64,000 bases of DNA from Dehalogenimonas sp. (lineage in GTDB: Bacteria > Chloroflexota > Dehalococcoidia > Dehalococcoidales > Dehalococcoidaceae). Under the pieces are notes generated by a model. It saw only the letters and a program-made list of their open reading frames with translations. It was not told where the DNA came from and ran no database searches. Of this stretch, positions 26,335 through 55,702 are shown in pieces. Position 1 is the stretch's first letter, and every line of letters starts with the position of its first letter. Both the position numbers and the translations under genes were made by a program. The stretch covers positions 27,906 to 91,905 of the forward strand of contig JBOWAX010000005.1 of NCBI GenBank assembly GCA_050864255.1, written 5' to 3'.

Positions 26335-26358
26335 TATATGGCTCCAAAACTGAAATGA

Positions 26359-30777: not shown

Positions 30778-30845
30778 CTCGTCAAAACCTCAATAAAAAT
30801 ACAGAATAATATTGGCAGAATAATTACTCTCAGTTACTTGATAAC

Positions 30846-31535: not shown

Positions 31536-31675
31536 CTTGTTTTCCCCCAAATTTAATCCCCGAATAATTTTATTGGTGCCGTCTTCCTGCACCACCAGAC
31601 ACTAGTATTCTACAACCACTTTTTCTACCGTCACTGTAAGTAAACACGGTAATTCACTCGGTTTCGTAATAAAAT

Positions 31676-31691
31676 TAGGTAATATTACCTA
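31676..31691. promoter_or_regulatory. Perfect 16-bp palindrome TAGGTAATATTACCTA in a divergent intergenic region (candidate operator)
   Basis: Read directly from the sequence. It lies between the regulator gene (30846-31535, minus) and the dehydratase gene (31830, plus). A further TAGGTAAT sits at 31754-31761. Confidence 0.5.
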
Positions 31692-31829
31692 GGAAACCCG
31701 AATGTATAACCTGAATCGGAGGGTTGGTATTTGGTGAATCTTGGTGAGATATGTAGGTAATAGTCACACTAGCCCGGTATATCCATACACCATACACTTA
31801 ACGCAATACCTAGCAAGGGAGGTCTCGAC

Positions 31830-35510: not shown

Positions 35511-36914
35511 ATGCCACTGGAGAATAAATTAGTTGGCATGAGGGTATGTATTGTTTCCGAAGGGTCTTACCCCGTTACGCGAGGCGGGTTGAGCGAGTGG
35601 GCTCATATGTTGATTAAGTCACTCAGCAGTGTGCGTTTTGATGTCTTTTGTATTGTGCCTTATGACGAGCCTCAGGTGTCGGTCTACCCAAAATTGCCGA
35701 ATATTGACCGCGTGGTAATCAAACCCATATTACGGAGCCGACCTCATTTTTCTCCCAGAGAATTAGCTCCGAAAATCCGCCGTTCTTTGCCGGGGGTTAT
35801 TAGACAGATGACAGACGGAAAGGCAATGACTTTAACAAGTCTGACCGATTCGAAACAGCGATGTCCGGCAAGTAAAGCTTGGTTAGCTTCTGAATCGTAT
35901 TGGGATTGTGTAACCGGCATCTATAAGGATTCACATTCGGAAGAGTCGCTGACTGACTATTTTTGGTCGGTTTTTGGTTTCAATTCAATCTTGCTTGACA
36001 GCCTGAATTTTATCAATGAAATGCCCAGGGCGGATATATATCACTCTTTGAGTACCGGGTTCGCCGGTTATGCTTGCGCTATCGCCAAACTGACCAGAAA
36101 CAAGCCGATGGTGACCACCGAGCAAGGGTTGTATCTGGTTGAAAGACGGGCTGAATTGACCCAGAGTGATGTTTCTCCCCTTTATCGTGATTTGGGGTTC
36201 AAGTTTTCAGAATCCTTGGTTAGAACCTCCTATCAATATGCCGATAGGATTGTGCCGCCATGTTATATTCCGCACACCAAGATTGAAAAAGACTTGGGTG
36301 CTGACCCTATTAAAATCACGGTAATCAATAATGGTATTGAGGTAGAGCGTTTCACACCGGGGAATCGGACGGGCGAGAAGGTTGTAATCGGCTGTTTTGC
36401 CCGTGTCGTACCTATCAAAGGAATAACCGATTTGATCAAAGCGGCCAAAATAGTAACTCAGCGCTGCGATGCGGAATTTGTCGTATTAGGTGAGATTCAG
36501 GACAAGAATTATCATCAGAAGTGTCTGGATCTCATTGAAGAGCTTGGAATCTCCAAATCATTCAAAATTATGGGGCATGTCAGTGCCGAAGAATGGTACC
36601 GCAAGGTAGATATATTCACCTTGTCTTCAATTTCTGAAGGTGTTCCCTATGCTCTGTTGGAAGCCATGAGTTCGGAATTGCCTTCGGTTTGTACCGCTGT
36701 GGGTGGTGTGCCTGAGATTATGAGCGATGGTGTTGGCTTTGTAGTGCCTCCGGGTGAACCAGAGGCGCTGGCAGATAAGCTTTGCCTGTTGGTTGAGGAT
36801 AAGGAGTTACGCAAAAAATTAGGCAATCACGCGATTAATGTGGCCCATCAGAAGTACACCCTGACTGAAATGGCTGGGAAATTTCTTAAACTATATGAGG
36901 AATTGGCAGGATGA
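35511..36914 (+). CDS. PelF-like family 4 glycosyltransferase
   Basis: The N-terminus MRVCIVSEGSYPVTRGGLSEWAHML fits the PelF-type N-terminal domain. The GT4 C-terminal half carries SISEGVPYALLEAMSSELP. Confidence 0.75.
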   Translation: MPLENKLVGMRVCIVSEGSYPVTRGGLSEWAHMLIKSLSSVRFDVFCIVPYDEPQVSVYPKLPNIDRVVIKPILRSRPHFSPRELAPKIRRSLPGVIRQMTDGKAMTLTSLTDSKQRCPASKAWLASESYWDCVTGIYKDSHSEESLTDYFWSVFGFNSILLDSLNFINEMPRADIYHSLSTGFAGYACAIAKLTRNKPMVTTEQGLYLVERRAELTQSDVSPLYRDLGFKFSESLVRTSYQYADRIVPPCYIPHTKIEKDLGADPIKITVINNGIEVERFTPGNRTGEKVVIGCFARVVPIKGITDLIKAAKIVTQRCDAEFVVLGEIQDKNYHQKCLDLIEELGISKSFKIMGHVSAEEWYRKVDIFTLSSISEGVPYALLEAMSSELPSVCTAVGGVPEIMSDGVGFVVPPGEPEALADKLCLLVEDKELRKKLGNHAINVAHQKYTLTEMAGKFLKLYEELAG

Positions 36915-38290
36915 GAGGTGAAGGGGTGCCCATCACTACGGTCCTTCCCCCAAAGGCTAACAACCCTTCCATGACCCGTGCGGTTTTATTTATTACTCCG
37001 GCGCTGGTGGTTACAATTGTATCTGTGGTGTTGTTTTCCCTTCTGGATGGCTTGCCAGCCGCAGACTTCAATATTTTTTCGGTCACTATTCTGGCAGCAG
37101 TCATTATTAGTCTTCTGTCGGCGGCGGTCATCCAAATATTGATTTATCGGATAATTGAAGAAAATAAAACTTATCCGATTGAGGCTGCACGGAGAAGCGT
37201 TGGCCTCGGAATGAAATACAGTTTTGTTTCCTCATTAGTGGTTTCGGCGCTTATCTTCCCATATTTAACGCGGGTCGTGGGTCTGTCGGATCAGGATTTT
37301 CTGTTTTTTGCCGCCCTCCATTTCCTTTATTCAGGTGCCTGGGTGGTAATTTCGGTATACTGGGCGACCAAACATTATCTCTACCCCACCATTATTTTTA
37401 TCGTGGGTTATATGGTTGTATTTTTTGCAACCTATGGAATGTACCAGGTTTCCCCGGGCAACATCATTATCGGCTACACCGGAGGCATTGCGGTATTGCT
37501 GATTCTATCTTTGCTAAGTGTGTCATCGGCTTTCCCAAAGTCAAAGACGGGGAAGATTATTTCGAATGATCTTTCGCGGCTTCCTAAAATGGATAGCCCC
37601 ACCAGATGGGCCATTATGTTTAATACCACGTATATTCTGGCCATTTTTCTGGATAAGATTGTAATTTGGATATTTCAGGCCCAGGCAACCGGGGGCGGGC
37701 TTTTGATTTCCGGTACGTACACCCTCGCCTCTTTTCTGGGGTTGATTCCGATGTTGAGTATCGGAACTATCGCCTATTTCAATGACCGAACCAGTTTACT
37801 GGTGGAAAAGCGTTATCAAGGTACGCAAAGCCAGATCAAAGCCAGGATAAATGAGTATCGCCGAGCCTATTGGCGCAGCTTTATGGTAACGCTGTTGATT
37901 TCCCTGATCTTGGCGCTGGTTTTGATCTTTGTCGTGGTTTATTACTTTCCAGATTTCGGCTCAACCGCAGTCATTACTTCAGTGGCAATCGGGTCCTTCT
38001 TTCTTAGCGGTATTGTGTTTAACTCTGTGGTACTGCCGATATTCGGCCAGTCTAAATATTCAACATTGGCGGTGTTTATGGTAGTCATCGGGGTTCTTGC
38101 AGCTGTCCCGGTCATTAGCTCTGAAATCTGGTTTGCGGCTTTGGGCTTCATGACGGGTTGCATCATGGGATTTTTAATCAGCTTTATTAAAACAGCCAGT
38201 TGCCTGGGAAAATTTGAGTTCAATATGTTTCGTTTTATCTCCCAAAATACACTTAGAGAATTAAATCAAAAAAGGAGTTATCTATCATGA
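36911..38290 (+). CDS. PelG-like polytopic membrane protein (putative polysaccharide exporter)
   Basis: 459 aa with about 12 hydrophobic segments. It has ATGA overlaps with both the pelF-like gene and the next gene. Size and position match PelG. Confidence 0.6.
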   Translation: MRGEGVPITTVLPPKANNPSMTRAVLFITPALVVTIVSVVLFSLLDGLPAADFNIFSVTILAAVIISLLSAAVIQILIYRIIEENKTYPIEAARRSVGLGMKYSFVSSLVVSALIFPYLTRVVGLSDQDFLFFAALHFLYSGAWVVISVYWATKHYLYPTIIFIVGYMVVFFATYGMYQVSPGNIIIGYTGGIAVLLILSLLSVSSAFPKSKTGKIISNDLSRLPKMDSPTRWAIMFNTTYILAIFLDKIVIWIFQAQATGGGLLISGTYTLASFLGLIPMLSIGTIAYFNDRTSLLVEKRYQGTQSQIKARINEYRRAYWRSFMVTLLISLILALVLIFVVVYYFPDFGSTAVITSVAIGSFFLSGIVFNSVVLPIFGQSKYSTLAVFMVVIGVLAAVPVISSEIWFAALGFMTGCIMGFLISFIKTASCLGKFEFNMFRFISQNTLRELNQKRSYLS

Positions 38291-39111
38291 AAAAGCTATT
38301 GGTCACCGGCGGCAGCGGATTTGTGGGGCGTCACTTGATTACGGCTCTATTAAAACACTATCCGGACCTAGAAGTCACTTCTTTGTCTCGCAGCGAGGGG
38401 GTAATTTCCAAGTTACTTATGGAATGCCCCAGTCCCAGGTTAAAAGTTGAAATGTGTGATATTCGTGACCAAAAGCAGGTTGCTAAAGTCCTGCATGATA
38501 TTGATACCGTTATTCATCTGGCGGCTATGAAACGCGTTGATCTGTGTGAAGATAAATGTCAGGAGGCTGTTAGCATTAATGTGATTGGTACCATGAATTT
38601 GTTGAAGGCATTTCACGGTGATACGTTTATCTCCATGTCAACCGATAAGGCTGTGGAACCAATGAATTGTTATGGGGCTACGAAACTGGTGGCCGAAAAA
38701 ATGGTTATGGAACAGGCCCATCTGAGTCAAAATGGCCGCCGGTTCATGATTATTCGCTCCGGTAACATTGAAGGTTCAACCGGTAGTGTTTTGGATATCT
38801 GGAAGCACCAAATTGAAGAGAGTAATGAAATCACTGTCACTGACCCCGATATGGTGCGCTTTTATACATCGGTTGAAGGGGTTATCACCCTCTACATGGC
38901 GGTATTGAAGCGAGGGGAGAACGGTAAAATATACTTCACGCCTCATGGTGACCCTTTGGTATTAAAGGAAATGACTCAAAGAGCTCTGGCGCTTTACGGC
39001 AACGACAAAACTAAAGTCAGAATTACAGGTTTGCGCCATGGGGAAAGAATGTTTGAAAAAATGTATGGCGACAACGAACCTAATATTGTTCAGTGTGAAG
39101 ATATATTGTAG
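38287..39111 (+). CDS. Short SDR of the CapD/PseB-like UDP-sugar 4,6-dehydratase family
   Basis: Motifs TGGSGFVGRHL, AAMKRVDLCE and STDKAVEPMNCYGATK. 274 aa. Confidence 0.65.
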   Translation: MKKLLVTGGSGFVGRHLITALLKHYPDLEVTSLSRSEGVISKLLMECPSPRLKVEMCDIRDQKQVAKVLHDIDTVIHLAAMKRVDLCEDKCQEAVSINVIGTMNLLKAFHGDTFISMSTDKAVEPMNCYGATKLVAEKMVMEQAHLSQNGRRFMIIRSGNIEGSTGSVLDIWKHQIEESNEITVTDPDMVRFYTSVEGVITLYMAVLKRGENGKIYFTPHGDPLVLKEMTQRALALYGNDKTKVRITGLRHGERMFEKMYGDNEPNIVQCEDIL

Positions 39112-39966: not shown

Positions 39967-40312
39967 AAGTTCTACCTATGCATGCAAAATGACATTAACA
40001 TCCTTAGTCCACAATACAACTAATCTATCCGAAATTCAAGCCCATTTTTACATTATTTTCACTACCAATTGTTAGACATGTTGGTTTTTCTACGTACTTT
40101 ACAGGTCTAACATAGGTGCCGGGGGTCTGGTTACGTATGGTAAGGTCTGAATAATTACGTAAATCCTTGCAGACATATAGGTAATTTGCGGATTTTGCGG
40201 ATGGAGCAGGCTGAGTATCATGGGTCGTAGTGTGAAATAGGTGAACGCTGGTGTTTGACCTTTTCGCCAAGAATTTAAAAATCTGGTAATGAATCGAACT
40301 GGAGTTGATGAG

Positions 40313-43300
40313 ATGAAAACAAAATCGACAAGAAGTAAAATTGTAAACTTTCTACTGGCAATCGGGATTGTTTTTGGTTTGTTGGTGTCTCCAATTCCAG
40401 GGCCGGAAGGCCGGGTTTCGGCCCAACCCATTCCCTCCGTACCAATAAACGTCGGGATTATTATTGACGAAGGATATCCTGGTTCAAGTATAGACAGTGA
40501 CTTATTTGTTAGTCTTGAGCGGGTGCTCGAATTTAACCGGTTGCCATGGGAAACCTTGGATGTCTCAGACGGTCAGGATCTCACTCTGCAGGATGGTGAT
40601 GGCAATCCTTTGTTCTCCACTCTGGTCATCATGGCGCCGGGATTTAGGATTAACACTGCACAAAGCGAAAGCATAGTCTCGGTTGCCACGGATCCAGTGG
40701 TTGGAACTGGTCTGGTCAGCCTCGGCACGAACTTTGTGAATCAAATCCTTGCCCCATTATTTGGAATAGATGCCTTGGGCAATGAAAGTGTATGGCTTCC
40801 TTCAAGCGGTGTTGTGTTTGGAGATGAGAATGGCTTTACCCTTTCGTATTCCGAGGAAACGATTAATCAACCTGGAATTGGTTTCATTGATCATACTGTG
40901 AATGAAGGTGCGGCAATAGTCGCTACCCATATCACATCAGAAAAACCCGCAATCTGGACTTATGATAATTCCAATGGTGCAAACACGGTGTTCTTCAACG
41001 AAAACGGAATGAATGCCTGGTATATGCAGGGCTTGTTGTTGCAGAGTATCCTGTATACGATGCCGGTCGGTTTGGGATCACCGGTTAATGCAGGCGCCAT
41101 TCAGATAGACGACAGCCCTCGCAGTTACTATAGTCCTGAAGGTCTTCAGTCTACCCACTATGATTTTATCTCCAACTTCCTCAAGTTTATTGAAGCCTAC
41201 AATCTGGGAGCTTCTGCCTTTATCTCATTCTCTTACAGCTACGATATTGATTCTTTCTGGGCATATCCTCAATCTGTTGAGGGTGTCTACCAGTACTTGG
41301 CGGCTGGCGTCGAAATTGGGCTGCATTGCGGCACGATACATATGCCGCTGGCGCTTGGGGATTTGTACCCTTGGCTAGGACAAGAAGGTCTTAATGCTGA
41401 AGTGACCGCTATTATGGCGGCATTTGACGAGCTTTCAGCACAGCTACTTGAGGAATATGACGTTGTTTTTAGCCCTTCAGATATCCTGTCTTATGTTGCC
41501 GCCTCAAATAACATAGACAGCGCGGGATATCAGGCGATAGATACTCTGACTGATATTAAATATGTCAGCACTGAATTTTCTCTGGATGAAGGGACAAGAG
41601 GCGGGGGAACCGGTGTAATCAGTCCGGAATATCCCAGCGGCTTCCCCGTCACCTGGAGAGATTTTGGTTTTGAAGAGGGGACTCTGCTCTATAACCTGCC
41701 GCGATCACAAGCAAACTTTGCCGTCTTTGCACCCAACACCGATCCTGCTTCACGCACCGCCGCCTTTGCTAATTTACAGTGTCTTATTGAGAGTGGACAA
41801 CCGTATCTGATTTTTTCCCACCCGGACGAAAATGTAATCATGCTTCCCAATACCACGATGGATCAGGTCTTTATGGGTTACACTGCGTTCGCGGACTTTG
41901 TTGTGCAATACCCATTTTATCGTTGGCTGAAAACTGCGGAACTTGGCGGTATATTGGATGCCCGCGCGCCAACCCTCAACGCCAGATGGCTGCCGGGTAG
42001 CAGTACGCTTGAGATTATGGATTACGTCGCCGCTGAGGCTTTGCAAGTCAAAACGTCGTTCTTCCTTACTGAGGTTGCTCTTGACGGAACCACGTTGAGC
42101 TTAACCTTTGGCGACACCGATACCGGATACAATGCACCAGCTGCTTACGATATTGTGAAAACTGGCAACAATTTCTTTATATATCAGAATGGGGCCGTTG
42201 AAAATATGCCGACAACCCCAAGCGCCCCCTTTGTATTTGAGTATTCTGCAGCTCCAGTAGTTGAGACAGACTCTGTCACCAATATCGAGGAAACCACCGC
42301 TGTACTCAACGGTACCCTTAGCAGTTTGGGTAGCGGTGATAGCGTGGATGTTCACTTTGAATGGGGTTTAACACCCAGCTTCGAGAACTCCATCATCGCC
42401 GAATCCTCACCGATGACTGCTACCGGTTCTTTCAGCGCTGCGATTTCCGGTTTGGAATCCGGGACGAATTACTTTTACCGGGCTGTGGCCTCGGCTGAAG
42501 GCTTATCTATCGGTGCAACCGTATCCTTCGTCACCGGTGGTACACCTAAAACTACTATTACGGGCGTGGTCTATGAATTTGGCGGTTCGGTACCGATTGC
42601 AGGGGCCACCATCACCGTAAACGATGAAGTACAGACAAACCTTACGGATGAGAATGGCCGTTACACAGTGAATGTGGCACCTCCCGTCAGCCCCTATACC
42701 TATACCATTGGCGTCAGTAAAACTGGTTATCAGACGGAATCTCAAACTGTTGAAGTCGTGATAACCAATTACTATGTAGTTGATTTCACCGGAGTTCATG
42801 CATTATCAGCGCTGGCTCCACCAGCCGTAGCACAAAGCCATGAGAATCAGACTGTTCAGTACGGCTCAGATGCCATATTTACGGCAACAGCCACCGGCGT
42901 ACCGGCGCTCACGGCACAATGGCAGGTAAGTGCCGACAGCGGCGCCAATTGGGCTACTGTAGGACTTGGTGTCAATACCGTCTTATCGGCTGATCGAGGA
43001 ACCGTAACCACGCTGACGATAACCAAACCAACGGTTGACATGACTGGTAATCAATACCGTGTCATTTTCAGTAATACCTCTGGAGATGACGCTGTTACCG
43101 CCGCGGCAAGTTTAACGGTAGAACCCAGACCAATCACGGTGACCGCGGATGCTCAGACCAAAATATATGGAAATGATGATCCTGAATATACCTACAAAGT
43201 AACCGTAGGGGTGTTGGTTACCGGGGATAGCCTCAGCGGCGGCTTACTACGTGATGAGGGTGAACTGGTTGGAACCTACGCCATTCAACAGGGCGACTTG

Positions 43301-44680
43301 AACGAATTAAGCGGCAACTATGCTTTGACCTACGTCGGGGCTGATTTAACCATTGTCCAAAGGCCATTAACCGTCATCGGTATTACCGCGGAGAACAAAG
43401 AGTACGATGGAAACACCGACGCCGTAATTAACACAGCCTCTGCAGCACTGGGAGGTGTTATTACCGGTGATAGCGGCAATGTCACCCTTACAATCGAGGC
43501 ACCTGTGGGTGTCTTTGAAAACAAAAACGCCGGTATGGACAAGGCAGTTTTGGTTTCCGGCATGTCCATCGAGGGGTCGGCAATTGGCAACTATGTTCTG
43601 AATCAGCCAACCGCTACTGCGGATATAACCGCTAAGGAACTAACGGTTGATGGAACATTTACTGCCGAAAATAAGATATATGATGGCAGTATCATGGCTG
43701 TTGTGGCGGACAATCAACTGACCCTTGTTGGTATATTGGATGGGGAAATAGTGACCCTCTCAGCTGTCGTCAGTTTCGCCGATGCAAATGCTAGTACTAC
43801 CCCCAAACCAGTTAGCCTGACTTCAGATTCCAATCTGGGTGGGGCTGATGGAGGCAACTATGTACTGTCGTTCATAGACGCACCAACAACTACCGCGAAC
43901 ATTACGCCAGCTACAGTAATGCCAACGGTCACTGTGGAGGATAAAATCTTTGATGGTACCACTGCAGCAACTATTCTCACCAGAACTCTCTCCGGGGTCA
44001 TTGGTGATGATGTTGTCTCCTTGACGGGCGGTACCGCTGCTTTTGACACCCCGGATGTCGGGAATGACAAAACAGTTTCCGTCACCGGGCTTACCCTGAG
44101 CGGGGGAGCTGCCGGCAACTACATATTGTCATCAAATAGTACTATGACCACTGCAGATATCACGCCGACTGAATACCAAACAGATTTGGAGCTGGTTGAA
44201 GGCTGGAACTTTATAGGTTTACCGTTAACCCCGGCATCAACCGCCATCGGTGATGTCTTAATGTCTATTAATGACAAGGTGGTTTCCGTTTGGGCTTATG
44301 ACGGTACCGAATGGTTCTTTTATATCCCAGGTTCCCAGTTTTCCACTCTTGCTCAAATGAACGTTGGCCATGGCTATTGGGTGAACCTTAACGCTCAGGC
44401 TACTCTAACAATTACTGGCACCCCGCAAGCTGTTTCAGCCATTGAGCTGGGAACCGGGTGGAATCTAGTAAGTCTGCCCAGCGCTCCCAGCAATCCAGCC
44501 ATTGATACTGTCTTAAGTGGCATCATCGGCGGCGTTGTTTCGGTTTGGTGTTATGACGGGGTCACTAATACTTGGACATTCTTTATTCCCGATTCTGTTT
44601 TTTCTACATTGACTGAAATGACTCAGGGAAAATCATATTGGGTCAATATGTCTGCGAGTGGCACTCTGAATATAAGTTAG
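40313..44680 (+). CDS. Giant secreted multidomain surface protein: ~600-aa putative polysaccharide-deacetylase-like module plus adhesin-type domains
   Basis: Signal peptide MKTKSTRSKIVNFLLAIGIVFGLLVSP...VSAQ. The shared module carries IQIDDSP, LHCGTIH and LIFSHP. It is followed by an FN3-like 'EWGLT' domain, a CarboxypepD_reg-like domain, an Ig-like domain, one MBG-like and three YDG-like repeats, and two C-terminal ~80-aa repeats. Confidence 0.85.
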   Translation: MKTKSTRSKIVNFLLAIGIVFGLLVSPIPGPEGRVSAQPIPSVPINVGIIIDEGYPGSSIDSDLFVSLERVLEFNRLPWETLDVSDGQDLTLQDGDGNPLFSTLVIMAPGFRINTAQSESIVSVATDPVVGTGLVSLGTNFVNQILAPLFGIDALGNESVWLPSSGVVFGDENGFTLSYSEETINQPGIGFIDHTVNEGAAIVATHITSEKPAIWTYDNSNGANTVFFNENGMNAWYMQGLLLQSILYTMPVGLGSPVNAGAIQIDDSPRSYYSPEGLQSTHYDFISNFLKFIEAYNLGASAFISFSYSYDIDSFWAYPQSVEGVYQYLAAGVEIGLHCGTIHMPLALGDLYPWLGQEGLNAEVTAIMAAFDELSAQLLEEYDVVFSPSDILSYVAASNNIDSAGYQAIDTLTDIKYVSTEFSLDEGTRGGGTGVISPEYPSGFPVTWRDFGFEEGTLLYNLPRSQANFAVFAPNTDPASRTAAFANLQCLIESGQPYLIFSHPDENVIMLPNTTMDQVFMGYTAFADFVVQYPFYRWLKTAELGGILDARAPTLNARWLPGSSTLEIMDYVAAEALQVKTSFFLTEVALDGTTLSLTFGDTDTGYNAPAAYDIVKTGNNFFIYQNGAVENMPTTPSAPFVFEYSAAPVVETDSVTNIEETTAVLNGTLSSLGSGDSVDVHFEWGLTPSFENSIIAESSPMTATGSFSAAISGLESGTNYFYRAVASAEGLSIGATVSFVTGGTPKTTITGVVYEFGGSVPIAGATITVNDEVQTNLTDENGRYTVNVAPPVSPYTYTIGVSKTGYQTESQTVEVVITNYYVVDFTGVHALSALAPPAVAQSHENQTVQYGSDAIFTATATGVPALTAQWQVSADSGANWATVGLGVNTVLSADRGTVTTLTITKPTVDMTGNQYRVIFSNTSGDDAVTAAASLTVEPRPITVTADAQTKIYGNDDPEYTYKVTVGVLVTGDSLSGGLLRDEGELVGTYAIQQGDLNELSGNYALTYVGADLTIVQRPLTVIGITAENKEYDGNTDAVINTASAALGGVITGDSGNVTLTIEAPVGVFENKNAGMDKAVLVSGMSIEGSAIGNYVLNQPTATADITAKELTVDGTFTAENKIYDGSIMAVVADNQLTLVGILDGEIVTLSAVVSFADANASTTPKPVSLTSDSNLGGADGGNYVLSFIDAPTTTANITPATVMPTVTVEDKIFDGTTAATILTRTLSGVIGDDVVSLTGGTAAFDTPDVGNDKTVSVTGLTLSGGAAGNYILSSNSTMTTADITPTEYQTDLELVEGWNFIGLPLTPASTAIGDVLMSINDKVVSVWAYDGTEWFFYIPGSQFSTLAQMNVGHGYWVNLNAQATLTITGTPQAVSAIELGTGWNLVSLPSAPSNPAIDTVLSGIIGGVVSVWCYDGVTNTWTFFIPDSVFSTLTEMTQGKSYWVNMSASGTLNIS

Positions 44681-44719
44681 CAACAACGGTTTATCTGAAT
44701 AGACGAAGTGAGGTTTAAA

Positions 44720-46309
44720 ATGAAGCAGATTTTTAGAGGGGTTTTCGCGGTACTATTAGGCATATTGATATTGCCTGTCGTTGGCGTTTTTGCTCAGGGA
44801 CTACCGATACCCTATATTTTCTCGGGAACTGTGACTGTTGACGGGGCACCGGCTCAAGACGGGCTTTCTGTAACGAGCAGTCTTGGCGGCAGCGGCAGTA
44901 CCCTCGGTGGAGAATATACCTTGCTCATCGACACAGCCGGCATGACCGGTGATGCTGTGAGTTTCAGTGTAAATGGATTGCCGGCCGGTTCAACTACGCT
45001 GGGATCCAGAGGGGAAGAGAAGAATTTTGATCTCTCAACGACTACTCCTGTTGTTCAGTATACATTAAATATAAGCAGCTCGGCAGGAGGGACGACCTCA
45101 CCCGGAACCGGTACACACACTTATAATTCAGGCACGGTCGTGAATGTGACGGCAACCCCTAGCGCTGGTTACGAATTTGCCAGTTGGACTGGGCCGGTGG
45201 CTAATGCCGGATCGGCGTCGACTACTGTAACCATGGATGGTAATAAAAGTATAGCCGCCAACTTTACTGTTGTTGGTCCGGTTATCACTTATGATCTCAC
45301 GATTGCCAGTTCCAGCGGTGGAAGCACATCTCCCGTAAGCGGAACGTACACCCATAATTCTGGCTCGATAGTGACAGTGACAGCATATCCTGATTCCGGA
45401 TATGAGTTTGCCGGTTGGAACGGGCCGGTGGCTAATTCTGGTTCGGCTTCTACCACCGTGACCATGGATGGTGATAAAAGTGTATCTGCCAATTTTACCG
45501 AGATTGTGATAATTATTGATGATATTGAAACTTTTGATCTTTCCATCGCCAGTTCGGTCGGAGGGACGACCTCACCCGGAAGTGGCGTTCATACTTATGA
45601 ATCCGGCACGGTTGTGTCACTAACAGCAATCCCAAGCACCGGGTTTGAATTTGGTGGATGGGACGGACCGGTGCTCAATGTCGGTTTGCCTTCAACCAGC
45701 GTCACGATGGACAGCAACAGGAGCGTTACTGCCAACTTTACTATAATTCCTGCCGTGACCTACGAACTGACGATTGCCAGTTCCCCGGGCGGGACAACGT
45801 CACCCATCGCCGGCGTTCATGTTTTTGATTCTGGCGCCGTGGTATCAGTTTCTGCTAATCCTTTAAGTGGTTATGAATTTATCAATTGGAGTGGGGCGGT
45901 AGCCGAATCCACTTCAGCCACGACCACTGTCACTATGGACAGCAACAAGAGCGTTACTGCCAACTTCACTATAATTCCTGCCGTGACTTACGAACTGACG
46001 ATTGGGAGTTCCGCCGGCGGATCCGTCTCACTTGCCGCCGGTACTTATACCTACGAACCAGGTGACATAGTCACCTTAACCGCAAATCCAAACCCCGGCT
46101 ACGAATTCACCAGTTGGAGCGGGCCAGTGACTAACGCCGGTTCAGCTACCACCACCGTGACGATTGATGGGAATGTGAGTGTAACTCCTCACTTTGTAGC
46201 AGTCGCCGCTTCCTCAAGCGGGACAAATTGGTTGGTCATTGGTATCATCGCCGTCGCCGCGGTCTTGGTACTTGGTTTTGTCGTTCTAAACGTCCGCAGA
46301 CGCTATTAA
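44720..46309 (+). CDS. Surface protein with five divergent InlB-B-repeat-like modules and a C-terminal TM anchor
   Basis: Signal peptide. The pattern Y(D/E)LTI.SS.GG.TSP..G.H.Y.SG..V.VTA.P..GYEF..W.GPV....S..TTVTMD..KSV.ANF occurs five times. The tail is NWLVIGIIAVAAVLVLGFVVLNVRRRY. Confidence 0.85.
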   Translation: MKQIFRGVFAVLLGILILPVVGVFAQGLPIPYIFSGTVTVDGAPAQDGLSVTSSLGGSGSTLGGEYTLLIDTAGMTGDAVSFSVNGLPAGSTTLGSRGEEKNFDLSTTTPVVQYTLNISSSAGGTTSPGTGTHTYNSGTVVNVTATPSAGYEFASWTGPVANAGSASTTVTMDGNKSIAANFTVVGPVITYDLTIASSSGGSTSPVSGTYTHNSGSIVTVTAYPDSGYEFAGWNGPVANSGSASTTVTMDGDKSVSANFTEIVIIIDDIETFDLSIASSVGGTTSPGSGVHTYESGTVVSLTAIPSTGFEFGGWDGPVLNVGLPSTSVTMDSNRSVTANFTIIPAVTYELTIASSPGGTTSPIAGVHVFDSGAVVSVSANPLSGYEFINWSGAVAESTSATTTVTMDSNKSVTANFTIIPAVTYELTIGSSAGGSVSLAAGTYTYEPGDIVTLTANPNPGYEFTSWSGPVTNAGSATTTVTIDGNVSVTPHFVAVAASSSGTNWLVIGIIAVAAVLVLGFVVLNVRRRY

Positions 46310-46320
46310 TAGTTCAATGT

Positions 46321-46352
46321 ACGCGACGGGGCTTATTGATGCCCCGTCGCGT
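46321..46352 (+). terminator. Hairpin terminator after the 44720-46309 gene
   Basis: 12-bp stem ACGCGACGGGGC / GCCCCGTCGCGT with an 8-nt loop, followed by TTCTGG (weak T-tract). Confidence 0.5.
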
Positions 46353-46562
46353 TTCTGGAAGACAAGTATTGTTAAGACTACCTAATTCCCTTACCACAGA
46401 TTACGCAATCGCTTGCTGCTATTTAAGTAATCTACGGATTACATAATATGCTGTATTTTATTATCATCATAGTAGGCTAATGTAGCAATAGTAGATTGAG
46501 TCACGGTTTGCTGTTGTTTCAGCAAATTAGCTTTTTATCAGTAGTTTACACAAAGGAACAAG

Positions 46563-49500
46563 ATGGAAATAGTGAAAGGGTGTCTGCGCCACGGATACCG
46601 CATTCTATTAATCTCGGTAATGATATTCGGAAATTGGAGTGTGTTGCCCGTTTCAGCGGCTGAGGATACCGCAGAGGCAAGTCGGCTTTTACCTTCCGGT
46701 CCTTTCATTCAGGGAGATAGTTTCATTGTACATATCGATTTTGTCGCTCCTATCGGAGAAGGCGACGGGATTTATGATATTGAACTATGTGATTCAGCTC
46801 CTGATGGTTGGGCGGTGTCAAACCCTGATTTTTCGCCGAAACCCAAGTCATTCACGGTGGCAGGTAATACGGTCACATGTAATTGGGATGCCCCGCCGGG
46901 CAAAAAAAATACAGCTTATTCTGAGGGTACTCAATTCAGTGTTTCTTATTCTGTTACAATCCCGTTAGCCACCGTTCCAAATACCGGGATCTTCTATGGT
47001 AGTTTGTTATATCATACCGGTAAAAAAGGGGTCATTAATGAGGTCATTAGTGGTGGGGACTCTGTTTCTGTGGAGGAACTACCAGTGGATTCGCCGGAAG
47101 CGTCTACCTTAGGGGCGACGGTAATTACGGCCACTTCAGCCGTTTTGAACGGAAATATCAGCAGTCTCGGCACAGCCTCTTCCATCTTGGTTAATTTTGA
47201 ATGGGGACTAACTTCAGTCTACGGTTACTCCACTTTAGACCAGGTAACGACTGCAACGGGAAGCATTAACGCCATAATAACTGGTCTGTCGCCTGACACT
47301 ATATATCATTTTCGTATAAGAGCCATGGGGGATGGAGAAGTGATTGGCGCAGATCAGGTGTTTGTCACAAGTCCGATCAGCATCGTTCCACCTTCGGTCA
47401 CTACTTCCCTGGCTGATGAGGTAACGACCGGTTCTGCCGTTTTGAATGGCCACATCAGCAGTCTTGGCACAGCACCCAGCGTTCTGGTTAATTTTGAGTG
47501 GGGACTCACGCCCGCTTACGGCACCTCCACTGTGAGCCAGGTAATGGCGATTTCGGGCAGCTTCAGTAACGTTATAACCGACTTGGTGCCCAATACCACC
47601 TATCATTTCCGCGCACAGGCGATAGGCGCTGTTGAAGTAATTGGGGCTGATCAAACTTTTACCACTGCTGCTATGAATACTATAACACCTATCCCCAATC
47701 CAGAGCCTCCTGTATTTGAAAATCAGTTCATCATGCCATCCGAATTGGTTTTTCCGGTGAGGGTTGGGGTAATTGTTTTTGAAAGTTATCCCGGAGCAGG
47801 TTCGACTTCTGAAATGTATCAAAGCATTGAACAGGTGCTTGGTGCTAATAGAATACCTTGGGATGTCCTGGATATCACCGGCGGAAAGTCATTGGATTTG
47901 ACTGATGGAGGGGGTGTTCCTAAATATTCATGTCTGATTATATTGGCGCCCGGATTCATCATTAGCGATATTGATAGCTGGAGCATCATTAATTGTGCCA
48001 AATTAGGAACCGGCGTGGTCGGAGTGGCCCCGGACATGGTCAATTCAATTTTGGCGCCGGTTTTTGGCATTAGCAAACTTGGTGTTAACTGGATTGCATC
48101 GGATGGTATGCGCATTGAAGTAGATGAATTCACCTTTGCATATGCCGGAGAGATTATCAAGCAATCAGGGTCATCGTTGTTAGACCACCGATTAATGGTG
48201 GACTCGCTCATTATTGCCCGCGATGTTACGGCAGATAGACCGGCAATTTGGACACATCGATATGGTGCTTCCAAGAATGTATTTTTTAACGACACTGGAA
48301 TTCAATCCAGATATTTTCAGGGAATATTGCTACAAAGCATCCTTTATTCCATGCCGATGGGTTTGGGATCACCGGTGAATGCTGGTGCAGTGCAGGTTGA
48401 CGACACTCCACGGGCATATTATAGCTCTGAGTATTTACAGGAATTCTACTATGATTACCTCAACAATTTTATTGATTTCCTCGATGCCTATAATTTGACT
48501 TCAACGGTATATGTCGTGTTTTCATACTCGGGTCAGACGACTGACTTCTGGCTCTATCCTGAATCCGTGGAAGGGGTTTATAAATTCCTTGTACGCGGAG
48601 ACGAGATTGGATGGCACTGTGGTAACTATCACATCCCTTTAGTGACGGAGTATTGGGACGGAGAAACAGCGATAAATACTGAAATTAGCGCAACATTGCT
48701 CGCTGTTCAGAACCTGGCCCAACAACTTCAATCCAAATATGGGGTTGATTTGGGGAAGATAGTCTCCTACGTGCCGCCTATGAACGAGATCGGCAGTGAT
48801 GGTTATCAGGGTCTGGATGCACTTACCGATATCAAATACGTCGGTACCCAATATGATTTCGGTGTAGTTGATGATACTTCAACAATTTCCCATATTACTT
48901 ATGAAAACTTCGGCTGGGAAGCAGGAACGGAGATTTACAATTTGCCGCGGACGCAGGGTGATTTTTATACTTTTTCCGGCCAGGTAAGCACAGAAGATAC
49001 CAATAACGCTTGGGCTACCCTCAGAAGTGTGATTGAGAGCGGGCAAGCGTATCTTATATTTACTCATCCACCGGATGAAAATATTATGGATCCGACAAAA
49101 TACCCTGATTTTACCATGGCGGATTTATTCGAGGCCTATACCGTATGGGCGGATTATGTGATTACCAATTATCCATTTTATCGCTGGATGACGACTGCCG
49201 AGGTTGGCGGAATACTTGATTCTCGCGCCGTTTCTTTGAATTCGAGGTGGGTGATTGGTGAAAACACTTTGGAAATTATGGATTACTCGCCGGGTGAGGC
49301 TTTACAGATAAAAACCGCATTGTTTCTGCAAAGCATTAGTCTGGTGGGCACAACTCTAAAGCTATATTTTGGTGATTCCGTGGCGGATGTACTCTCGCCT
49401 GAGTACGATGTTATCAAGGAGGGGAACAATTATTTCATCTATCCTTCGGGTTCCAAGGATTCATTCCCAGTCATTCCTGGCACTCCGTTTGTTTTTGAAA

Positions 49501-49922
49501 ACACTGAACCGCCTGTGGTCGAGACTAATGGTGCTACCCACATCACCGATAAATCGGCAGTTCTGAATGGCCGGGTAAACGAGTTGGGTAGTGGTAAGGT
49601 GGTAGAAGTATTTTTTGAATGGGGTTTAACTCCTTCTTATGGCAATTTTACCGAGATTCAGACACTGAACAGCGTCGGTCCATTTGCTATGAACATTACC
49701 GGGTTGGAACATGGGGTTACCTATTATTTCAGAGCCAGGGCGAACGCCGAAGGAATATCCATCGGTACTGATGCAAGCTTGATACCGGTTGAGCAGACGA
49801 TAATATATAAACTTGGCTCATCATTTCCGGTTGTTTGGTTTGTATTTATCTGCGTATCCCTGGCGGCTGTATTCATCGTGTTAATTAATACTAGAAAGGC
49901 ATCATCAAGGTATATTGGCTAA
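46563..49922 (+). CDS. Giant surface protein, paralog of 40313-44680, with a C-terminal TM anchor
   Basis: Signal or anchor at the N-terminus, an N-terminal beta domain and two 'EWGLT' FN3-like domains. The same ~600-aa module follows (VQVDDTP, WHCGNYH, LIFTHP, YPFYRWMTTAEVGGILD), then a third EWGLT domain and a TM tail VVWFVFICVSLAAVFIVLINTRK. Confidence 0.85.
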   Translation: MEIVKGCLRHGYRILLISVMIFGNWSVLPVSAAEDTAEASRLLPSGPFIQGDSFIVHIDFVAPIGEGDGIYDIELCDSAPDGWAVSNPDFSPKPKSFTVAGNTVTCNWDAPPGKKNTAYSEGTQFSVSYSVTIPLATVPNTGIFYGSLLYHTGKKGVINEVISGGDSVSVEELPVDSPEASTLGATVITATSAVLNGNISSLGTASSILVNFEWGLTSVYGYSTLDQVTTATGSINAIITGLSPDTIYHFRIRAMGDGEVIGADQVFVTSPISIVPPSVTTSLADEVTTGSAVLNGHISSLGTAPSVLVNFEWGLTPAYGTSTVSQVMAISGSFSNVITDLVPNTTYHFRAQAIGAVEVIGADQTFTTAAMNTITPIPNPEPPVFENQFIMPSELVFPVRVGVIVFESYPGAGSTSEMYQSIEQVLGANRIPWDVLDITGGKSLDLTDGGGVPKYSCLIILAPGFIISDIDSWSIINCAKLGTGVVGVAPDMVNSILAPVFGISKLGVNWIASDGMRIEVDEFTFAYAGEIIKQSGSSLLDHRLMVDSLIIARDVTADRPAIWTHRYGASKNVFFNDTGIQSRYFQGILLQSILYSMPMGLGSPVNAGAVQVDDTPRAYYSSEYLQEFYYDYLNNFIDFLDAYNLTSTVYVVFSYSGQTTDFWLYPESVEGVYKFLVRGDEIGWHCGNYHIPLVTEYWDGETAINTEISATLLAVQNLAQQLQSKYGVDLGKIVSYVPPMNEIGSDGYQGLDALTDIKYVGTQYDFGVVDDTSTISHITYENFGWEAGTEIYNLPRTQGDFYTFSGQVSTEDTNNAWATLRSVIESGQAYLIFTHPPDENIMDPTKYPDFTMADLFEAYTVWADYVITNYPFYRWMTTAEVGGILDSRAVSLNSRWVIGENTLEIMDYSPGEALQIKTALFLQSISLVGTTLKLYFGDSVADVLSPEYDVIKEGNNYFIYPSGSKDSFPVIPGTPFVFENTEPPVVETNGATHITDKSAVLNGRVNELGSGKVVEVFFEWGLTPSYGNFTEIQTLNSVGPFAMNITGLEHGVTYYFRARANAEGISIGTDASLIPVEQTIIYKLGSSFPVVWFVFICVSLAAVFIVLINTRKASSRYIG

Positions 49923-50036: not shown

Positions 50037-50729
50037 TCATTCCGTGTTTTGAAACAGGCCTCGTTGGCGAGCCAGTTCAATAAGCTGTTGCTGGAAGTTT
50101 TGCAAACCCAGCTTACGCATCATGTTTGCCCGATGGAGCTCAACGGTGCGCCGGCTAATGGACAATTTTTCAGCAATCGCTTCATTGTTAAGCCCATGCA
50201 CTACATACTCGAAAATTTCAAACTCACGATGGGTTAATGTTTGCACGATGTCACCATTAGAAAAGCCAGAAAGAGGATAATCAACCGGTAGCCTTGATGG
50301 CCTATCAGCCTCTATGTACTTGCGGCTGTCAGCTACATCGTGTACCACCTTAATTAATTTTGCCTCAATATCATTCCAATAAATCACTGATTTAGCTCCG
50401 GAACGCAATGCTTCCTCAGTGGTGAAATTGCCGGTACGGGATAGTACAATGCAAGCTACCTGGGGGTATTTTTTGTGGATTAGACGTACAATCTCAAGAT
50501 CTAAGTTTCCACCAACAGTATAGACCAGTATATCCGGGTTGGTTGCAGCCAGCCTGGCGATGGCTTTTAAGTTATTTCCGGTTTCGCCCTTTACAAAAAA
50601 ATCATCATCGGATTCGAGAAATGCGCGAATATACTGTCTTGATTCAAAGTTTTCATCCGCCAGGACTATAGAAATTTGTCGCACGAGATTCGTTCCCTTC
50701 TCAAAAGCTGGAATCCCTGATGCTTTCAT
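50037..50729 (-). CDS. LuxR-type regulator with a degenerate (pseudo-)receiver domain
   Basis: LuxR HTH LTHREFEIFEYVVHGLNNEAIA. The receiver-like N-terminus reads PDILVYTVGGN where the phospho-acceptor Asp is expected, and it lacks the conserved Lys. The ATG overlaps the glmS stop (ATGA). An alternative GTG start lies at 50684. Confidence 0.8.
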   Translation of the reverse strand: MKASGIPAFEKGTNLVRQISIVLADENFESRQYIRAFLESDDDFFVKGETGNNLKAIARLAATNPDILVYTVGGNLDLEIVRLIHKKYPQVACIVLSRTGNFTTEEALRSGAKSVIYWNDIEAKLIKVVHDVADSRKYIEADRPSRLPVDYPLSGFSNGDIVQTLTHREFEIFEYVVHGLNNEAIAEKLSISRRTVELHRANMMRKLGLQNFQQQLIELARQRGLFQNTE

Positions 50730-52498
50730 TCCACGGTTACGCTCTTAGCCAGATTTCGTGGATGGTCTATAGCGCAACCACGGATTTTAGCTATGTGGTA
50801 AGCCAATAATTGTAATGGTATGGTATTGATAATTGGGGATAATAAAGTATTTGTGTGGGGCACCCGAATCACTACATCGGCCACTCCGTCAATCCCGTCT
50901 ACGTCACTGGCAGCGATGGCGATGACGTAGGCTTTTCGCGCTCTAGCCTCGATAATACTGGTAATCATTGAATCGTAATTGGCATCAGCGATTACCATCG
51001 CCACCACCGGCATTCCTTCATGTATTAGTGCCAACGGGCCGTGCTTAAGTTCGCCAGCCGCATAACCTTCCGCATGTATATAGGATACTTCCTTAAGTTT
51101 AAGAGCTCCTTCAAGTGCTACCGGATAGTTGATGCCTCGTCCGATAAAAAAGGCACTTTCAAAATTCGCCATATATTTTGCGATTTCAACGATCTCTGGT
51201 TCAATCTTGAAAACCTGCAGAACTTTATCCGGTAACATACCTAATTCTAAGCTTAGGCTCGTTCTAAGTTCCTCGGGAATTGTTGGTTGAGCCAGCACTA
51301 TTTGGCATAAGGCGATTAACTGTCCAGTGAAGCTTTTTGTAGCTGCGACACTGAACTCAGTTCCGGCTTTGATATAGACTGTCCGATCAGCCAGTCGGTT
51401 TGCGGTGCTACCCGGTACGTTGGTAACGGCCATAACCTTAATGCCACCGATTTTCAGTGCCCTCATTGCATATAGGACGTCGGCAGTTTCGCCCGATTGG
51501 GTTAGAACCAGGGCCTCATCAGGGAAGAGAACACGGCGATGGTTGAATTCGGAGCCTAGTGTCACTCTGGTTACGATCCCAAGCAACTCCTCAATGATAT
51601 ATGCGCCAATCAGACCCGCATGATAAGAAGTGCCACAGGCGACAATGGACAAGTCATGGGCACCATCGAAAAATGCAAGGTTTTGATCAAATGAGGCATT
51701 TTCCTGAATAGTATTCAAGATTACTTTTGGCTGTTCATGGATTTCTTTGAGCATAAAATGTTCATATCCGCATTTGTCGCTATCATCCCGGCACCAGTCG
51801 ACCAGTTGTTCTTCTCGTATACACTCAACGCCGTTATTCCTGATGATAATATTGTCACAGGTGATAGTACCAACGTCGCCATTTTCAAGGTAAATGGCAT
51901 TATTGCAATAGTTGATAATAGCCGGCATATCAGAGGCAACGAATTTTTCACCCTTGCCGTTGCCGATGACTAACGGGCTGTCCTTGCGGGCAACTATCAC
52001 CATGCCGGCGTCCAGGTGGCTGATGACAGCTATGGCATATGACCCTTCAAGAACCGCAACGGCTTGCGCAACCGCAGAACTCAGATCATCAACATAATAT
52101 TTTTCAATAAGATGAGAAATTACTTCAGTATCTGTATCGGAGATGAAATGATGTCCTTCGGCAGTCAGTTGTTGTTTAATTTTGGCATAATTTGAAATGA
52201 CGCCGTTGTGTACTACGGCGATTCGGCCACTACAGTCCAAATGGGGATGTGCGTTTACTTTAGTTGGGTGGCCGTGAGTTGCCCAACGTGAATGTCCAAT
52301 GCCCGTTGTTCCGGTAAGGGTGGGAGATGATTCTTTAAGAGCGGATACCCTGCCACTTTCTTTATATACCTTTAAACCGGTGTCATGTTCAACAGCGATT
52401 CCACAAGAATCGTAGCCTCGATATTCTAAACGCGTCAGGCAGTCGAACAAAACTCCGCTTGCTTGCTTGGGGCCAACATATCCTACGATACCACACAT
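50726..52498 (-). CDS. glmS: Glutamine--fructose-6-phosphate aminotransferase
   Basis: MCGIVGYVG (N-terminal nucleophile Cys), two SIS domains and the C-terminal KSVTVE. SD GAGGAG precedes the start. Confidence 0.96.
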   Translation of the reverse strand: MCGIVGYVGPKQASGVLFDCLTRLEYRGYDSCGIAVEHDTGLKVYKESGRVSALKESSPTLTGTTGIGHSRWATHGHPTKVNAHPHLDCSGRIAVVHNGVISNYAKIKQQLTAEGHHFISDTDTEVISHLIEKYYVDDLSSAVAQAVAVLEGSYAIAVISHLDAGMVIVARKDSPLVIGNGKGEKFVASDMPAIINYCNNAIYLENGDVGTITCDNIIIRNNGVECIREEQLVDWCRDDSDKCGYEHFMLKEIHEQPKVILNTIQENASFDQNLAFFDGAHDLSIVACGTSYHAGLIGAYIIEELLGIVTRVTLGSEFNHRRVLFPDEALVLTQSGETADVLYAMRALKIGGIKVMAVTNVPGSTANRLADRTVYIKAGTEFSVAATKSFTGQLIALCQIVLAQPTIPEELRTSLSLELGMLPDKVLQVFKIEPEIVEIAKYMANFESAFFIGRGINYPVALEGALKLKEVSYIHAEGYAAGELKHGPLALIHEGMPVVAMVIADANYDSMITSIIEARARKAYVIAIAASDVDGIDGVADVVIRVPHTNTLLSPIINTIPLQLLAYHIAKIRGCAIDHPRNLAKSVTVE

Positions 52499-55427: not shown

Positions 55428-55643
55428 TGATTTTCCTTTCGCCTCCTTATTGAACTACTTAGTAGTATATGGAGCTGCGAAAGGGCTGTACATACGTAAT
55501 TACTTGTTATTACACCTATATAGTACTAAGGTAATAGGGCAAGTACTTAAGTAATATATATTACATGTAGGATTTAGTAGGTATGCAATAGTCAGGATAA
55601 GGCACAAAGGGGCAGTCGAAAGTTTTGACACATACTTACGGCT

Positions 55644-55681: not shown

Positions 55682-55702
55682 ACAAGAGGCCGTAAAGCCG
55701 CT

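Follow-up and report, generated by a model that had tools for sequence, protein, structure and literature searches.

Two paralogous surface proteins share one module

In a 64,000-nucleotide stretch of Dehalogenimonas sp. DNA (assembly GCA_050864255.1, contig JBOWAX010000005.1, positions 27,906 to 91,905 of the forward strand; hereafter the window), we focused on two giant open reading frames (ORFs), A and B, whose predicted surface proteins share a module related to PelA_DA, a deacetylase of bacterial Pel polysaccharide systems. The genes pelF and pelG lie 1.2-5 kb upstream of A (Table 1). A first-pass annotation of this DNA had proposed that A and B are paralogues. Both ORFs exist on the plus strand, and BLASTP aligned their products at 45% identity and 65% positives over 748 amino acids (A residues 33-770 with B residues 374-1090, E = 0), a similarity far beyond chance that marks the two as paralogues. 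The homology extends beyond the limits that the annotation had drawn for the module, with about 100 further amino acids running into an Fn3-like domain common to both proteins. The matching peptides that it had quoted were all found verbatim (LGSPVNAGAIQIDDSPRSYYSPE with LGSPVNAGAVQVDDTPRAYYSSE; EIGLHCGTIHMPL with EIGWHCGNYHIPL; GQPYLIFSHPDENVIM with GQAYLIFTHPPDENIM; YPFYRWLKTAELGG... with YPFYRWMTTAEVGG...), as was VGIIIDEGYPG...LVIMAPGF, and the motif order that it had read in A and B (DD, H-x4-H, LPR, IF(S/T)H) was correct. The domain lists below also bear out its statement that the module is decorated differently in the two proteins.

A Kyte-Doolittle scan of A detected one strongly hydrophobic segment, a helix at residues 18-33. 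This helix lies about 18 residues ahead of the module, a position like that of the M1 helix in PelA_DA, and is probably a signal anchor, with cleavage being the alternative. The database copy of the protein (P0005, 1455 amino acids) begins at 40313, the second in-frame ATG of ORF A. Behind the module, the array begins with the common Fn3-like domain and continues with a CarboxypepD_reg-like domain (residues 757-823), an Ig I-set domain (845-938), MBG_2 (949-1021) and three YDG domains (to 1284). Residues ~1270-1463 (44100-44680) contain two C-terminal repeats of ~95 amino acids that belong to no Pfam family and follow the pattern …GWN(F/L)(I/V)(G/S)LP…VW(A/C)YDG…(F/T)F(Y/F)IP(G/D)S.FSTL..M..G.(G/S)YWVN… Because A has no C-terminal transmembrane helix, its retention or binding may fall to these repeats.

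In B, hydrophobic segments were found at the N- and C-termini only. The module is preceded by an unassigned N-terminal domain and two Fn3-like domains and followed by one Fn3-like domain and the C-terminal transmembrane helix. The N-terminal domain (residues 35-175; 46563-47100) had no Pfam match. A copy with 37% identity occurs close to the C-terminus of a 1362-residue multi-Fn3 protein at a related metagenome locus (L001), where that protein adjoins two further module proteins (P0001 and P0002), which shows that domains have been shuffled among these surface proteins. A and B are separated by a gene for another protein, with Flg_new_2 repeats. These repeats stand alone in the window and are fused C-terminally to the module in a Chloroflexia metagenome-assembled genome (MAG; L004, 9854-14080), and this split-versus-fused arrangement hints at a functional link with the module.

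Table 1. Features of the locus, with positions in the window
Feature	Position	Strand	Description and evidence
ORF A	40289..44680	+	1463 amino acids; alternative start 40313; N-terminal hydrophobic helix, PelA_DA-type module, adhesin-like array
A, hydrophobic helix, residues 18-33 (IVNFLLAIGIVFGLLV)	40340..40387	+	Kyte-Doolittle scan; comparison with PMC13254593
A, N-terminal CBM114-like alpha/beta/alpha domain	40442..41083 (approximate)	+	AlphaFold2 model; Foldseek; alignment to 9ZAU from residue 86; GH42 accessory-domain matches
A, CE26-like distorted (beta/alpha)7 deacetylase domain, residues ~266-559	41084..41965	+	Alignments, AlphaFold2 model, Foldseek
A, key codons	D274/D275 41108-41113; H346 41324-41326; H351 41339-41341; R472 41702-41704; H511 41819-41821; E514
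A, beta-sandwich, residues ~560-645	41966..42223	+	Third domain of the PelA_DA architecture; AlphaFold2 strands 520-589 (module numbering); PMC13254593
A, adhesin-like array, residues ~655-1463	42251..44680	+	Fn3-like domain (common with B), then Pfam domains and C-terminal repeats
Intervening gene	44708..46309	+	533 amino acids; signal peptide, five Flg_new_2 (InlB B-repeat) domains, C-terminal transmembrane anchor
ORF B	46563..49922	+	1119 amino acids; signal peptide, unassigned domain, two Fn3-like domains, PelA_DA-type module, Fn3-like domain, C-terminal transmembrane anchor
B, CBM114-like alpha/beta/alpha domain, residues ~398-604	47754..48374 (approximate)	+	Homology to A; 9ZAU match
B, CE26-like deacetylase domain, residues ~605-888	48375..49226	+	Alignments, 9ZAU match
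B, key codons	D613/D614 48399-48404; H685 48615-48617; H690 48630-48632; P739; R796 48948-48950; H835 49065-49067; D838
B, beta-sandwich, residues ~889-975	49227..49487	+	Homology to A; AlphaFold2 model of A
B, C-terminal transmembrane anchor, residues ~1088-1110, then basic residues	49824..49892	+	Hydrophobicity scan
pelF	35511..36914	+	GT4 glycosyltransferase with DUF3492 N-terminal domain; NCBIfam PelF equivalog 201 bits (cut-off 100); Pfam
pelG	36911..38290	+	Membrane exporter; Pfam PelG 57.6 bits (gathering cut-off 29)
Short-chain dehydrogenase/reductase (SDR)	38287..39111	+	Polysacc_synt_2, PseB/FnlA-like, short (274 amino acids, truncated); apparently coupled to pelG
Spherulin4 (Sph3-like) putative glycoside hydrolase	34051..35175	-	With He_PIG Ig domain; Pfam 29.2 bits (below gathering cut-off, 30.2); orthologues in L005 and L006
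Two more Spherulin4-like genes	53367-55427; 55703-56995	-	C-terminal repeats of no known family
LuxR-type response regulator (50037-50729) and GlmS (50726-52498)	50037..52498	-	Pair kept beside module genes in L001, L005 and L006
Phosphoglucomutase/phosphomannomutase (GlmM-like)	29434-30777	-
LuxR response regulator	30846-31595	-
NAD epimerase	31830-32837	+
Class-V aminotransferase	32759-34054	+

The module is a divergent homologue of PelA_DA

Module A matched the Pfam family DUF2194 (PF09960) over profile positions 188-427 of 582; the whole protein scored 36.6 bits and the module by itself 38.7 bits, both above the gathering cut-off of 30.4 bits. A profile built from A, B and their three closest relatives had one match in the PDB, 9ZAU (E = 2.4e-11, 425 aligned positions), and B alone found the same entry at E = 8.2e-11. 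The hidden Markov model alignments to 9ZAU begin at chain residue 86-89. This structure is PelA_DA of Bacillus cereus ATCC 10987 (BCE_5585), the founder of CBM114 and CE26 (Subramanian et al., J Biol Chem, May 2026; PMC13254593). PelA_DA consists of an alpha/beta/alpha domain (residues 62-253, CBM114), a distorted (beta/alpha)7 esterase domain (254-543, CE26) and a beta-sandwich. It de-N-acetylates alpha-1,4-linked N-acetylgalactosamine (GalNAc) oligomers and is needed for Pel production, which requires deacetylation in both systems studied (PMC13254593). We also aligned A by BLASTP to a family member of 610 amino acids (P0077), at 23% identity over 370 amino acids (E = 9e-8). P0077 is a full-length DUF2194 protein (370 bits) that carries every key residue of PelA_DA at the published numbering.

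The resemblance to DUF2194 that the first-pass annotation had noted therefore stands, since A passes the gathering score and B matches a DUF2194 protein, 9ZAU. Its description of the family as uncharacterised does not (Whitfield 2020; Subramanian 2026). Gram-positive PelA was equated with DUF2194 in an earlier review (PMC7890745), and DUF2194 as the Pel deacetylase of monoderm bacteria is an already published idea.

The annotation had also likened the module to CE4 de-N-acetylases, in particular PgaB. The CE4 model PF01522 had no match in module A or B at E <= 10, and we found no NCBIfam model for the module. A family profile of 46 sequences reached CE4 structures only at E = 2e-3 and a GH42 accessory domain at E = 5e-4. 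With PF01522 unmatched and the founder in a separate family, CE26, we rejected membership in CE4 or placement with PgaB, while a fold-level relationship remains. The metal-site motifs themselves were well spotted, because their residues align one for one with the zinc and catalytic set of PelA_DA. From these comparisons of sequence we conclude that the module is a divergent homologue of PelA_DA (CE26/CBM114) and does not belong with CE4, PgaB, CE18 or CE21.

Metal and catalytic residues are conserved

In PelA_DA, zinc is held by D263, H350 and H354, D262 serves as the base and is oriented by R458, and H488 serves as the acid and is activated by D491 (PMC13254593). We took residue equivalences from BLASTP and a 46-sequence MAFFT alignment. 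D262 and D263 (motif MT1) correspond to D274 and D275 in A and to D613 and D614 in B, H350 to H346 and H685, H354 to H351 and H690, R458 to R472 and R796, H488 (MT5) to H511 and H835, and D491 to E514 and D838. The catalytic and metal residues are kept in 44 of the 46 aligned homologues, as the first-pass annotation had anticipated for the DD and H-x4-H residues, and in nearly all of the 141 family matches found by HMMER. The arginine of the R458 column and the MT5 histidine are invariant (46/46), and in the family motif table xDDxP, the LPR arginine and the MT5 histidine are nearly universal. Retention of all six residues in A, in B and in 44 of 46 homologues points to selection for catalysis. 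In the module, as in PelA_DA, the MT4 Asp is replaced by an acidic residue three positions past the MT5 histidine. This residue is Glu in the subfamily and Asp elsewhere; in the window it is Glu in A and Asp in B.

MT2 takes the form HCGxxH (Hx4H, with a conserved Cys) in the subfamily of A and B, and both of its histidines align with the founder's pair. The canonical family motif is HG(Y/F)NH (HxxxH), and an intermediate group (P0014-P0016) has HGGNH. The Hx4H spacing had been read as a pointer to PgaB. PgaB has this spacing too (H184/H189). As an insertion specific to this Chloroflexota subfamily, the spacing gives no sign of PgaB affinity, so the observation holds and the pointer does not. 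Judged from the homologue's crystal structure, D275, H346 and H351 of A are expected to cluster in space.

The predicted fold is that of a three-domain deacetylase

We modelled the module with AlphaFold2 from the 46-sequence alignment (a five-sequence alignment yielded a predicted local distance difference test score (pLDDT) of 41 and was discarded). The model reached a pLDDT of 92.7 and a predicted TM-score of 0.93. It comprises an alpha/beta/alpha domain, a (beta/alpha)7 barrel with its seven beta/alpha units at module residues 224-515, and a beta-sandwich. Foldseek was run against a PDB library dated to 2026-04-08, which predates 9ZAU, so that a match to the founder was not possible. The best match was Agd3 of Aspergillus fumigatus (6NWZ), over the whole length (E = 3e-16, TM-score 0.52-0.56), followed by the human NDST1 deacetylase (~1e-12), PelA (9CGY, 1e-10) and then CE4 enzymes. 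Thus, the proposed deacetylase barrel is present in the model, and the top full-length matches are all deacetylases. The N-terminal domain by itself matched class-I GATase, ThuA and GH164 accessory domains in Foldseek and a GH42 accessory domain by the family profile, in line with the flavodoxin/GATase-like sub-domain of the first-pass annotation.

The neighbouring genes combine Pel-type and galactosaminogalactan-like components

Overlaps of 4 nucleotides join pelF to pelG and pelG to the SDR gene. An epimerase-like domain is fused to PelD in streptococci, clostridia and actinobacteria (Whitfield 2020), and the SDR at 38287-39111 may be a free-standing counterpart of that domain in a cluster without PelD. 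A LuxR-type response regulator gene, listed after the SDR gene, also lies upstream of A, and regulators of this type flank the cluster, in place of PelD. We found no other deacetylase among the ORFs scanned across the window. With pelF and pelG upstream, this bears out the proposal that the module is a candidate for the missing deacetylase.

The Spherulin4-like genes are a second component of the locus. The product of 34051-35175 had no PDB match by sequence. The N-terminal part of the 53367-55427 product scored 36.7 bits (gathering cut-off 30.2) and is 33% identical to the 34051 copy (E = 6e-23). The 55703-56995 product had no Pfam match and is tied to the others by a similar N-terminal sequence and by common matches in L005 and L006. 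Sph3 (GH135) acts on alpha-1,4-GalNAc in galactosaminogalactan (GAG). By its gene content, the locus with pelF, pelG and three Sph3-like genes reads as a hybrid of the bacterial Pel and fungal GAG gene sets.

At the ends of the two downstream Sph3-like genes (53372-56177) lie five copies of a ~90-amino-acid repeat with no Pfam family and the consensus ...SVP..SGGSNEY.LSI.I.T......GL..G..VWVAA..TDFP.L...G.T.TG.LD...GWW.LK. Its DNA copies are 62-92% identical, and a related copy is found at the edge of L001. Within this region, a 250-nucleotide unit encoding a PKD/Big_9-type Ig domain is tandemly duplicated (53894-54401, 99% identical, 258-nucleotide spacing), apparently a case of repeat expansion that took place very recently within a gene for a surface protein.

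A GalE-like epimerase gene also lies downstream of B. The genes at 29434..34054, except for the LuxR regulator, are syntenic in L006. Further upstream on the minus strand (25144-29283), a CheB-CheR-PAS fusion protein of 974 amino acids adjoins a PAS/HisKA_3 histidine kinase. A homologue of the fusion (40% identity) is also found upstream of the module genes in L001, which makes it a possible conserved neighbour with a regulatory role. A type IV pilus cluster occupies 8821-18207 (minus strand) and encodes PilT-like, PilM, N_methyl-motif pilin, PilC-like T2SSF and PilB-like T2SSE proteins. Its PilB-like ATPase (798 amino acids) has an N-terminal Mrr_cat-like domain of restriction-endonuclease fold (30.2 bits), and the pilin region at 12-14 kb is low in GC (0.41).

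Relatives of the module and of the locus

HMMER, run exhaustively over 1.84 billion representatives, detected 141 relatives at E <= 1e-3. About 15 of these form a close subfamily (264-1124 bits), and the rest are canonical DUF2194 proteins of ~600 amino acids. Giant members of the subfamily have 934, 1302, 1455, 1968 and 2171 amino acids. Word-index searches with the module and with the five-sequence profile found three non-self relatives only, and HMMER was needed for the rest of the family. A scan of metagenomes added one 3-kb fragment. The host of the window itself was placed by its PheT (534-2972), which shares 88% identity with the PheT of a Dehalogenimonas MAG and 79% with that of D. lykanthroporepellens. 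The closest relatives come from Dehalococcoidia and Chloroflexia MAGs, and four of them (L002, L004, P0014 and P0007) pass DUF2194 with 58-73 bits or a precomputed match. The decorations vary by genome: He_PIG and Big_3_5 in L002, Flg_new_2 in L004, many He_PIG domains in P0007, and cadherin-like and dockerin domains in P0012.

The gene set itself recurs in other Chloroflexota genomes. In L005, a 2171-amino-acid DUF2194 protein is encoded beside pelF, pelG and the SDR gene (66% identity to the window SDR), an Sph3-like gene, a regulator, GlmS and a second Sph3-like gene. L006 is nearly syntenic with the window and contains GlmS, an A-type protein of 1968 amino acids (DUF2194, CarboxypepD_reg, Ig and YDG), an Sph3-like gene, the phosphoglucomutase, epimerases and the aminotransferase, with a second Sph3-like gene at the locus edge. 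In L009, pelF, pelG and a DUF2194 gene are contiguous.

P0001 and P0002 are tandem paralogues on an 808-kb metagenome contig (L001, 10001-14736; JGI 3300037657, Ga0401392_0000005). Their C-terminal ~270 amino acids are identical and their N-terminal halves far more divergent, indicating gene conversion or an assembly artefact. We considered the rule that loss of pelFG linkage goes with loss of the catalytic residues and rejected it: L001 conforms to it, whereas in L002 and L004 the residues are intact although pelF and pelG are not nearby.

A Pel-like polysaccharide as the probable target

We propose, with a probability of roughly 0.72, that A and B are extracellular CE26/CBM114-type modification enzymes of a Pel-like, GalNAc-rich exopolysaccharide system. 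The homology to PelA_DA, the fold, the residue conservation and the linkage to pelF and pelG all point this way.

A number of observations weigh against this reading, and several of them would suit active deacetylases that work on another polymer, either one containing a different or modified N-acetylhexosamine (HexNAc) and made by this cluster, or an exogenous surface glycan. PelD and PelE were not found, as no GAF, GGDEF or TPR match occurred in the ORFs scanned across the window. The SDR, PseB/FnlA-like and coupled to pelG, and the class-V aminotransferase mean that the polymer could be other than plain GalNAc. The GalNAc-binding residues of CBM114 (E115, W147 and D231) are not conserved in the subfamily, which has P, L and A/S there (A in ORF A, S in ORF B); the wider family is variable at the same three sites. 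The one-residue insertion in HCGxxH, relative to the founder's HxxxH, may alter metal geometry. Several relatives lie away from pelFG: none of the three loci from a genome scan (0/3) had these genes within 10 kb, and neither pelF nor pelG was found within 10 kb of the module genes in L001, L002 and L004. One relative combines a dockerin with a cadherin-like domain, as in secreted glycan-active enzymes. B, finally, had no match to PF09960 at E <= 10. We nevertheless consider a different substrate unlikely, because PelF scores above its equivalog threshold, three Sph3-like genes stand at the locus, and GlmS, the GlmM-like mutase and the epimerases fit a supply of UDP-GalNAc. The best structural matches, Agd3 and PelA, moreover both act on GalNAc polymers.

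The remaining points concern catalysis. The close paralogues P0001 and P0002 have lost the DD motif (to NA and EG) and one or both histidines, but LPR, FTHP and the other parts of the scaffold are kept. They are likely pseudo-enzymes, which indicates that the scaffold can persist without catalysis. The MT3 proline (P405 in PelA_DA) is lost in A (A405), a loss found otherwise in P0008 alone, and is kept in B (P739). Both facts, together with the large and variable adhesin-type arrays of the relatives (YDG, MBG, Ig, He_PIG, Big_3_5, Flg_new_2, dockerin), would be expected if A and B were mainly adhesins or matrix-tethering lectins whose module binds polysaccharide with little or no catalysis. 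We regard this as very improbable for the window proteins, given that the six catalytic and metal residues are kept in A, B and nearly all aligned homologues, and that the cluster has no other deacetylase while Pel production needs deacetylation (PMC13254593).

A merely superficial resemblance, in which a GH42-like, amidotransferase-like or other hydrolase carries DD and HxxxxH by chance, is scarcely tenable: the N-terminal domain alone matches GATase/ThuA and GH42/GH164 accessory domains and Pfam reports no CE4 domain, but significant homology to a characterised deacetylase over the full module, the alignment of the motifs with its zinc and catalytic residues and top full-length fold matches that are all deacetylases effectively refute it.

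For a Pel-like system we propose the following order of events, in which supply, polymerisation and export follow from family assignments and gene content, and the later steps from homology and sequence features. GlmS, the GlmM-like mutase and the epimerases would supply a UDP-HexNAc, most likely UDP-GalNAc; PelF would polymerise the sugar and PelG export the polymer. The CE26 modules would then strip N-acetyl groups outside the cell, leaving a cationic, adhesive polymer that the Sph3-like hydrolases may trim. Control would run through the LuxR-type two-component regulators and not through cyclic di-GMP and PelD. By analogy with PelA_DA, Asp275, His346 and His351 of A would hold a divalent metal and water, Asp274, oriented by Arg472, would be the base, and His511, activated by Glu514, the acid. 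The same roles would fall in B to D614, H685 and H690 (metal), D613 (base), R796, H835 (acid) and D838.

The N-terminal helix arrangement of PelA_DA is predicted to dock on PelG (PMC13254593). With its module right behind an N-terminal helix in the same arrangement, A appears the better candidate for work at the PelG exit. B would be exported by its signal peptide and held by its C-terminal transmembrane helix. The variable arrays of Ig, Fn3, YDG and MBG domains would reach out from the surface or act as tethers for the protein. Any split of tasks between A and B is speculative. A broader picture can be drawn, which we offer as a tentative and rather doubtful extension: in the wall-less, organohalide-respiring Dehalococcoidia, deacetylase modules may have been built into giant anchored adhesins that cationise a PelFG-made GalNAc polymer and couple the matrix to cell or partner surfaces, with A at the PelG exit and B distal. 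HCGxxH would then mark a mechanistically distinct CE26 subfamily, and the module would have degenerated to a catalytically dead lectin in some genomes (P0001, P0002).

Significance and comparison with known systems

Literature searches found no link of PelF or PelG with Chloroflexi, or of Pel polysaccharide with Dehalococcoidia or Dehalogenimonas; papers naming both Dehalogenimonas and exopolysaccharide proved unrelated, judged by title and abstract. Our analysis extends CE26/CBM114, known from one characterised Firmicute enzyme, to Chloroflexota, and so adds members whose MT2 spacing differs, whose architectures are very different and whose gene cluster is without PelD and PelE. Since the role of DUF2194 as a Pel deacetylase was already published, the finding opens no new question. 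It does suggest that Dehalogenimonas-type organohalide respirers, which are important for bioremediation and hard to grow, make a Pel/GAG-like cationic matrix, and such a matrix could help explain the aggregation and consortium dependence of these bacteria. For work on the CE26 mechanism, the degenerate paralogues in a related genome and the Hx4H variant are natural sequence contrasts.

Among known deacetylases, the CE4 enzymes PgaB, IcaB and PgdA share with the module the logic of the Asp-His-His metal triad and the order of MT1, MT2 and MT5. The position of the arginine and the acid-activating residue in the module instead follow the CE18/CE26 pattern, and PgaB was not among the top 50 Foldseek matches listed. 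The deacetylase domain of Pseudomonas PelA (CE21; P. thermotolerans, 9CGY) has the same Pel-pathway role with PelF and PelG, and was a Foldseek match as given above. It has no sequence similarity to the module, however, and is part of a periplasmic bifunctional protein (GH166, reductase-like and CE21) that works with PelB and PelC.

Agd3 (CE18 and CBM87), the GAG deacetylase of A. fumigatus, is the best structural neighbour of the whole module. In both, an alpha/beta/alpha accessory domain precedes the deacetylase barrel. Agd3 acts on an alpha-1,4-GalNAc-containing polymer, and its cluster also has the Spherulin4-family hydrolase Sph3 and an epimerase. The structural alignment has 11% identity, with no detectable sequence homology, and Agd3 belongs to another CAZy family. 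It is also eukaryotic and secreted, with a wider cleft and a long beta2 insertion (PMC13254593).

The Gram-positive-type Pel cluster (pelDEA_DAFG), like the window, has PelF and PelG linked to the deacetylase, a linkage that recurs in L005 and L009. It differs in pelD and pelE, which were not found in the window, and in its hydrolase, which is PelA_H-like where those of the window are Sph3-like. PelA_DA itself comes from a Firmicute and the window from a Dehalococcoidia bacterium, and the two are separated by ~23% identity, by HGYNH in the founder versus HCGxxH at MT2, by a Glu in A at the D491 position and by the CBM114 ligand residues. The architectures are also far apart: the founder has 610 amino acids, whereas A and B have 1119-1463 amino acids with adhesin arrays that are 2-3 times as long as the enzyme, and the window has two paralogues with opposite anchors, B being anchored C-terminally. 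Against these differences stand the same three-domain order, E-values of about 1e-10, equivalents of all six key residues in A and B, a predicted extracellular module that in A follows an N-terminal hydrophobic helix, and a gene linked to pelF and pelG.

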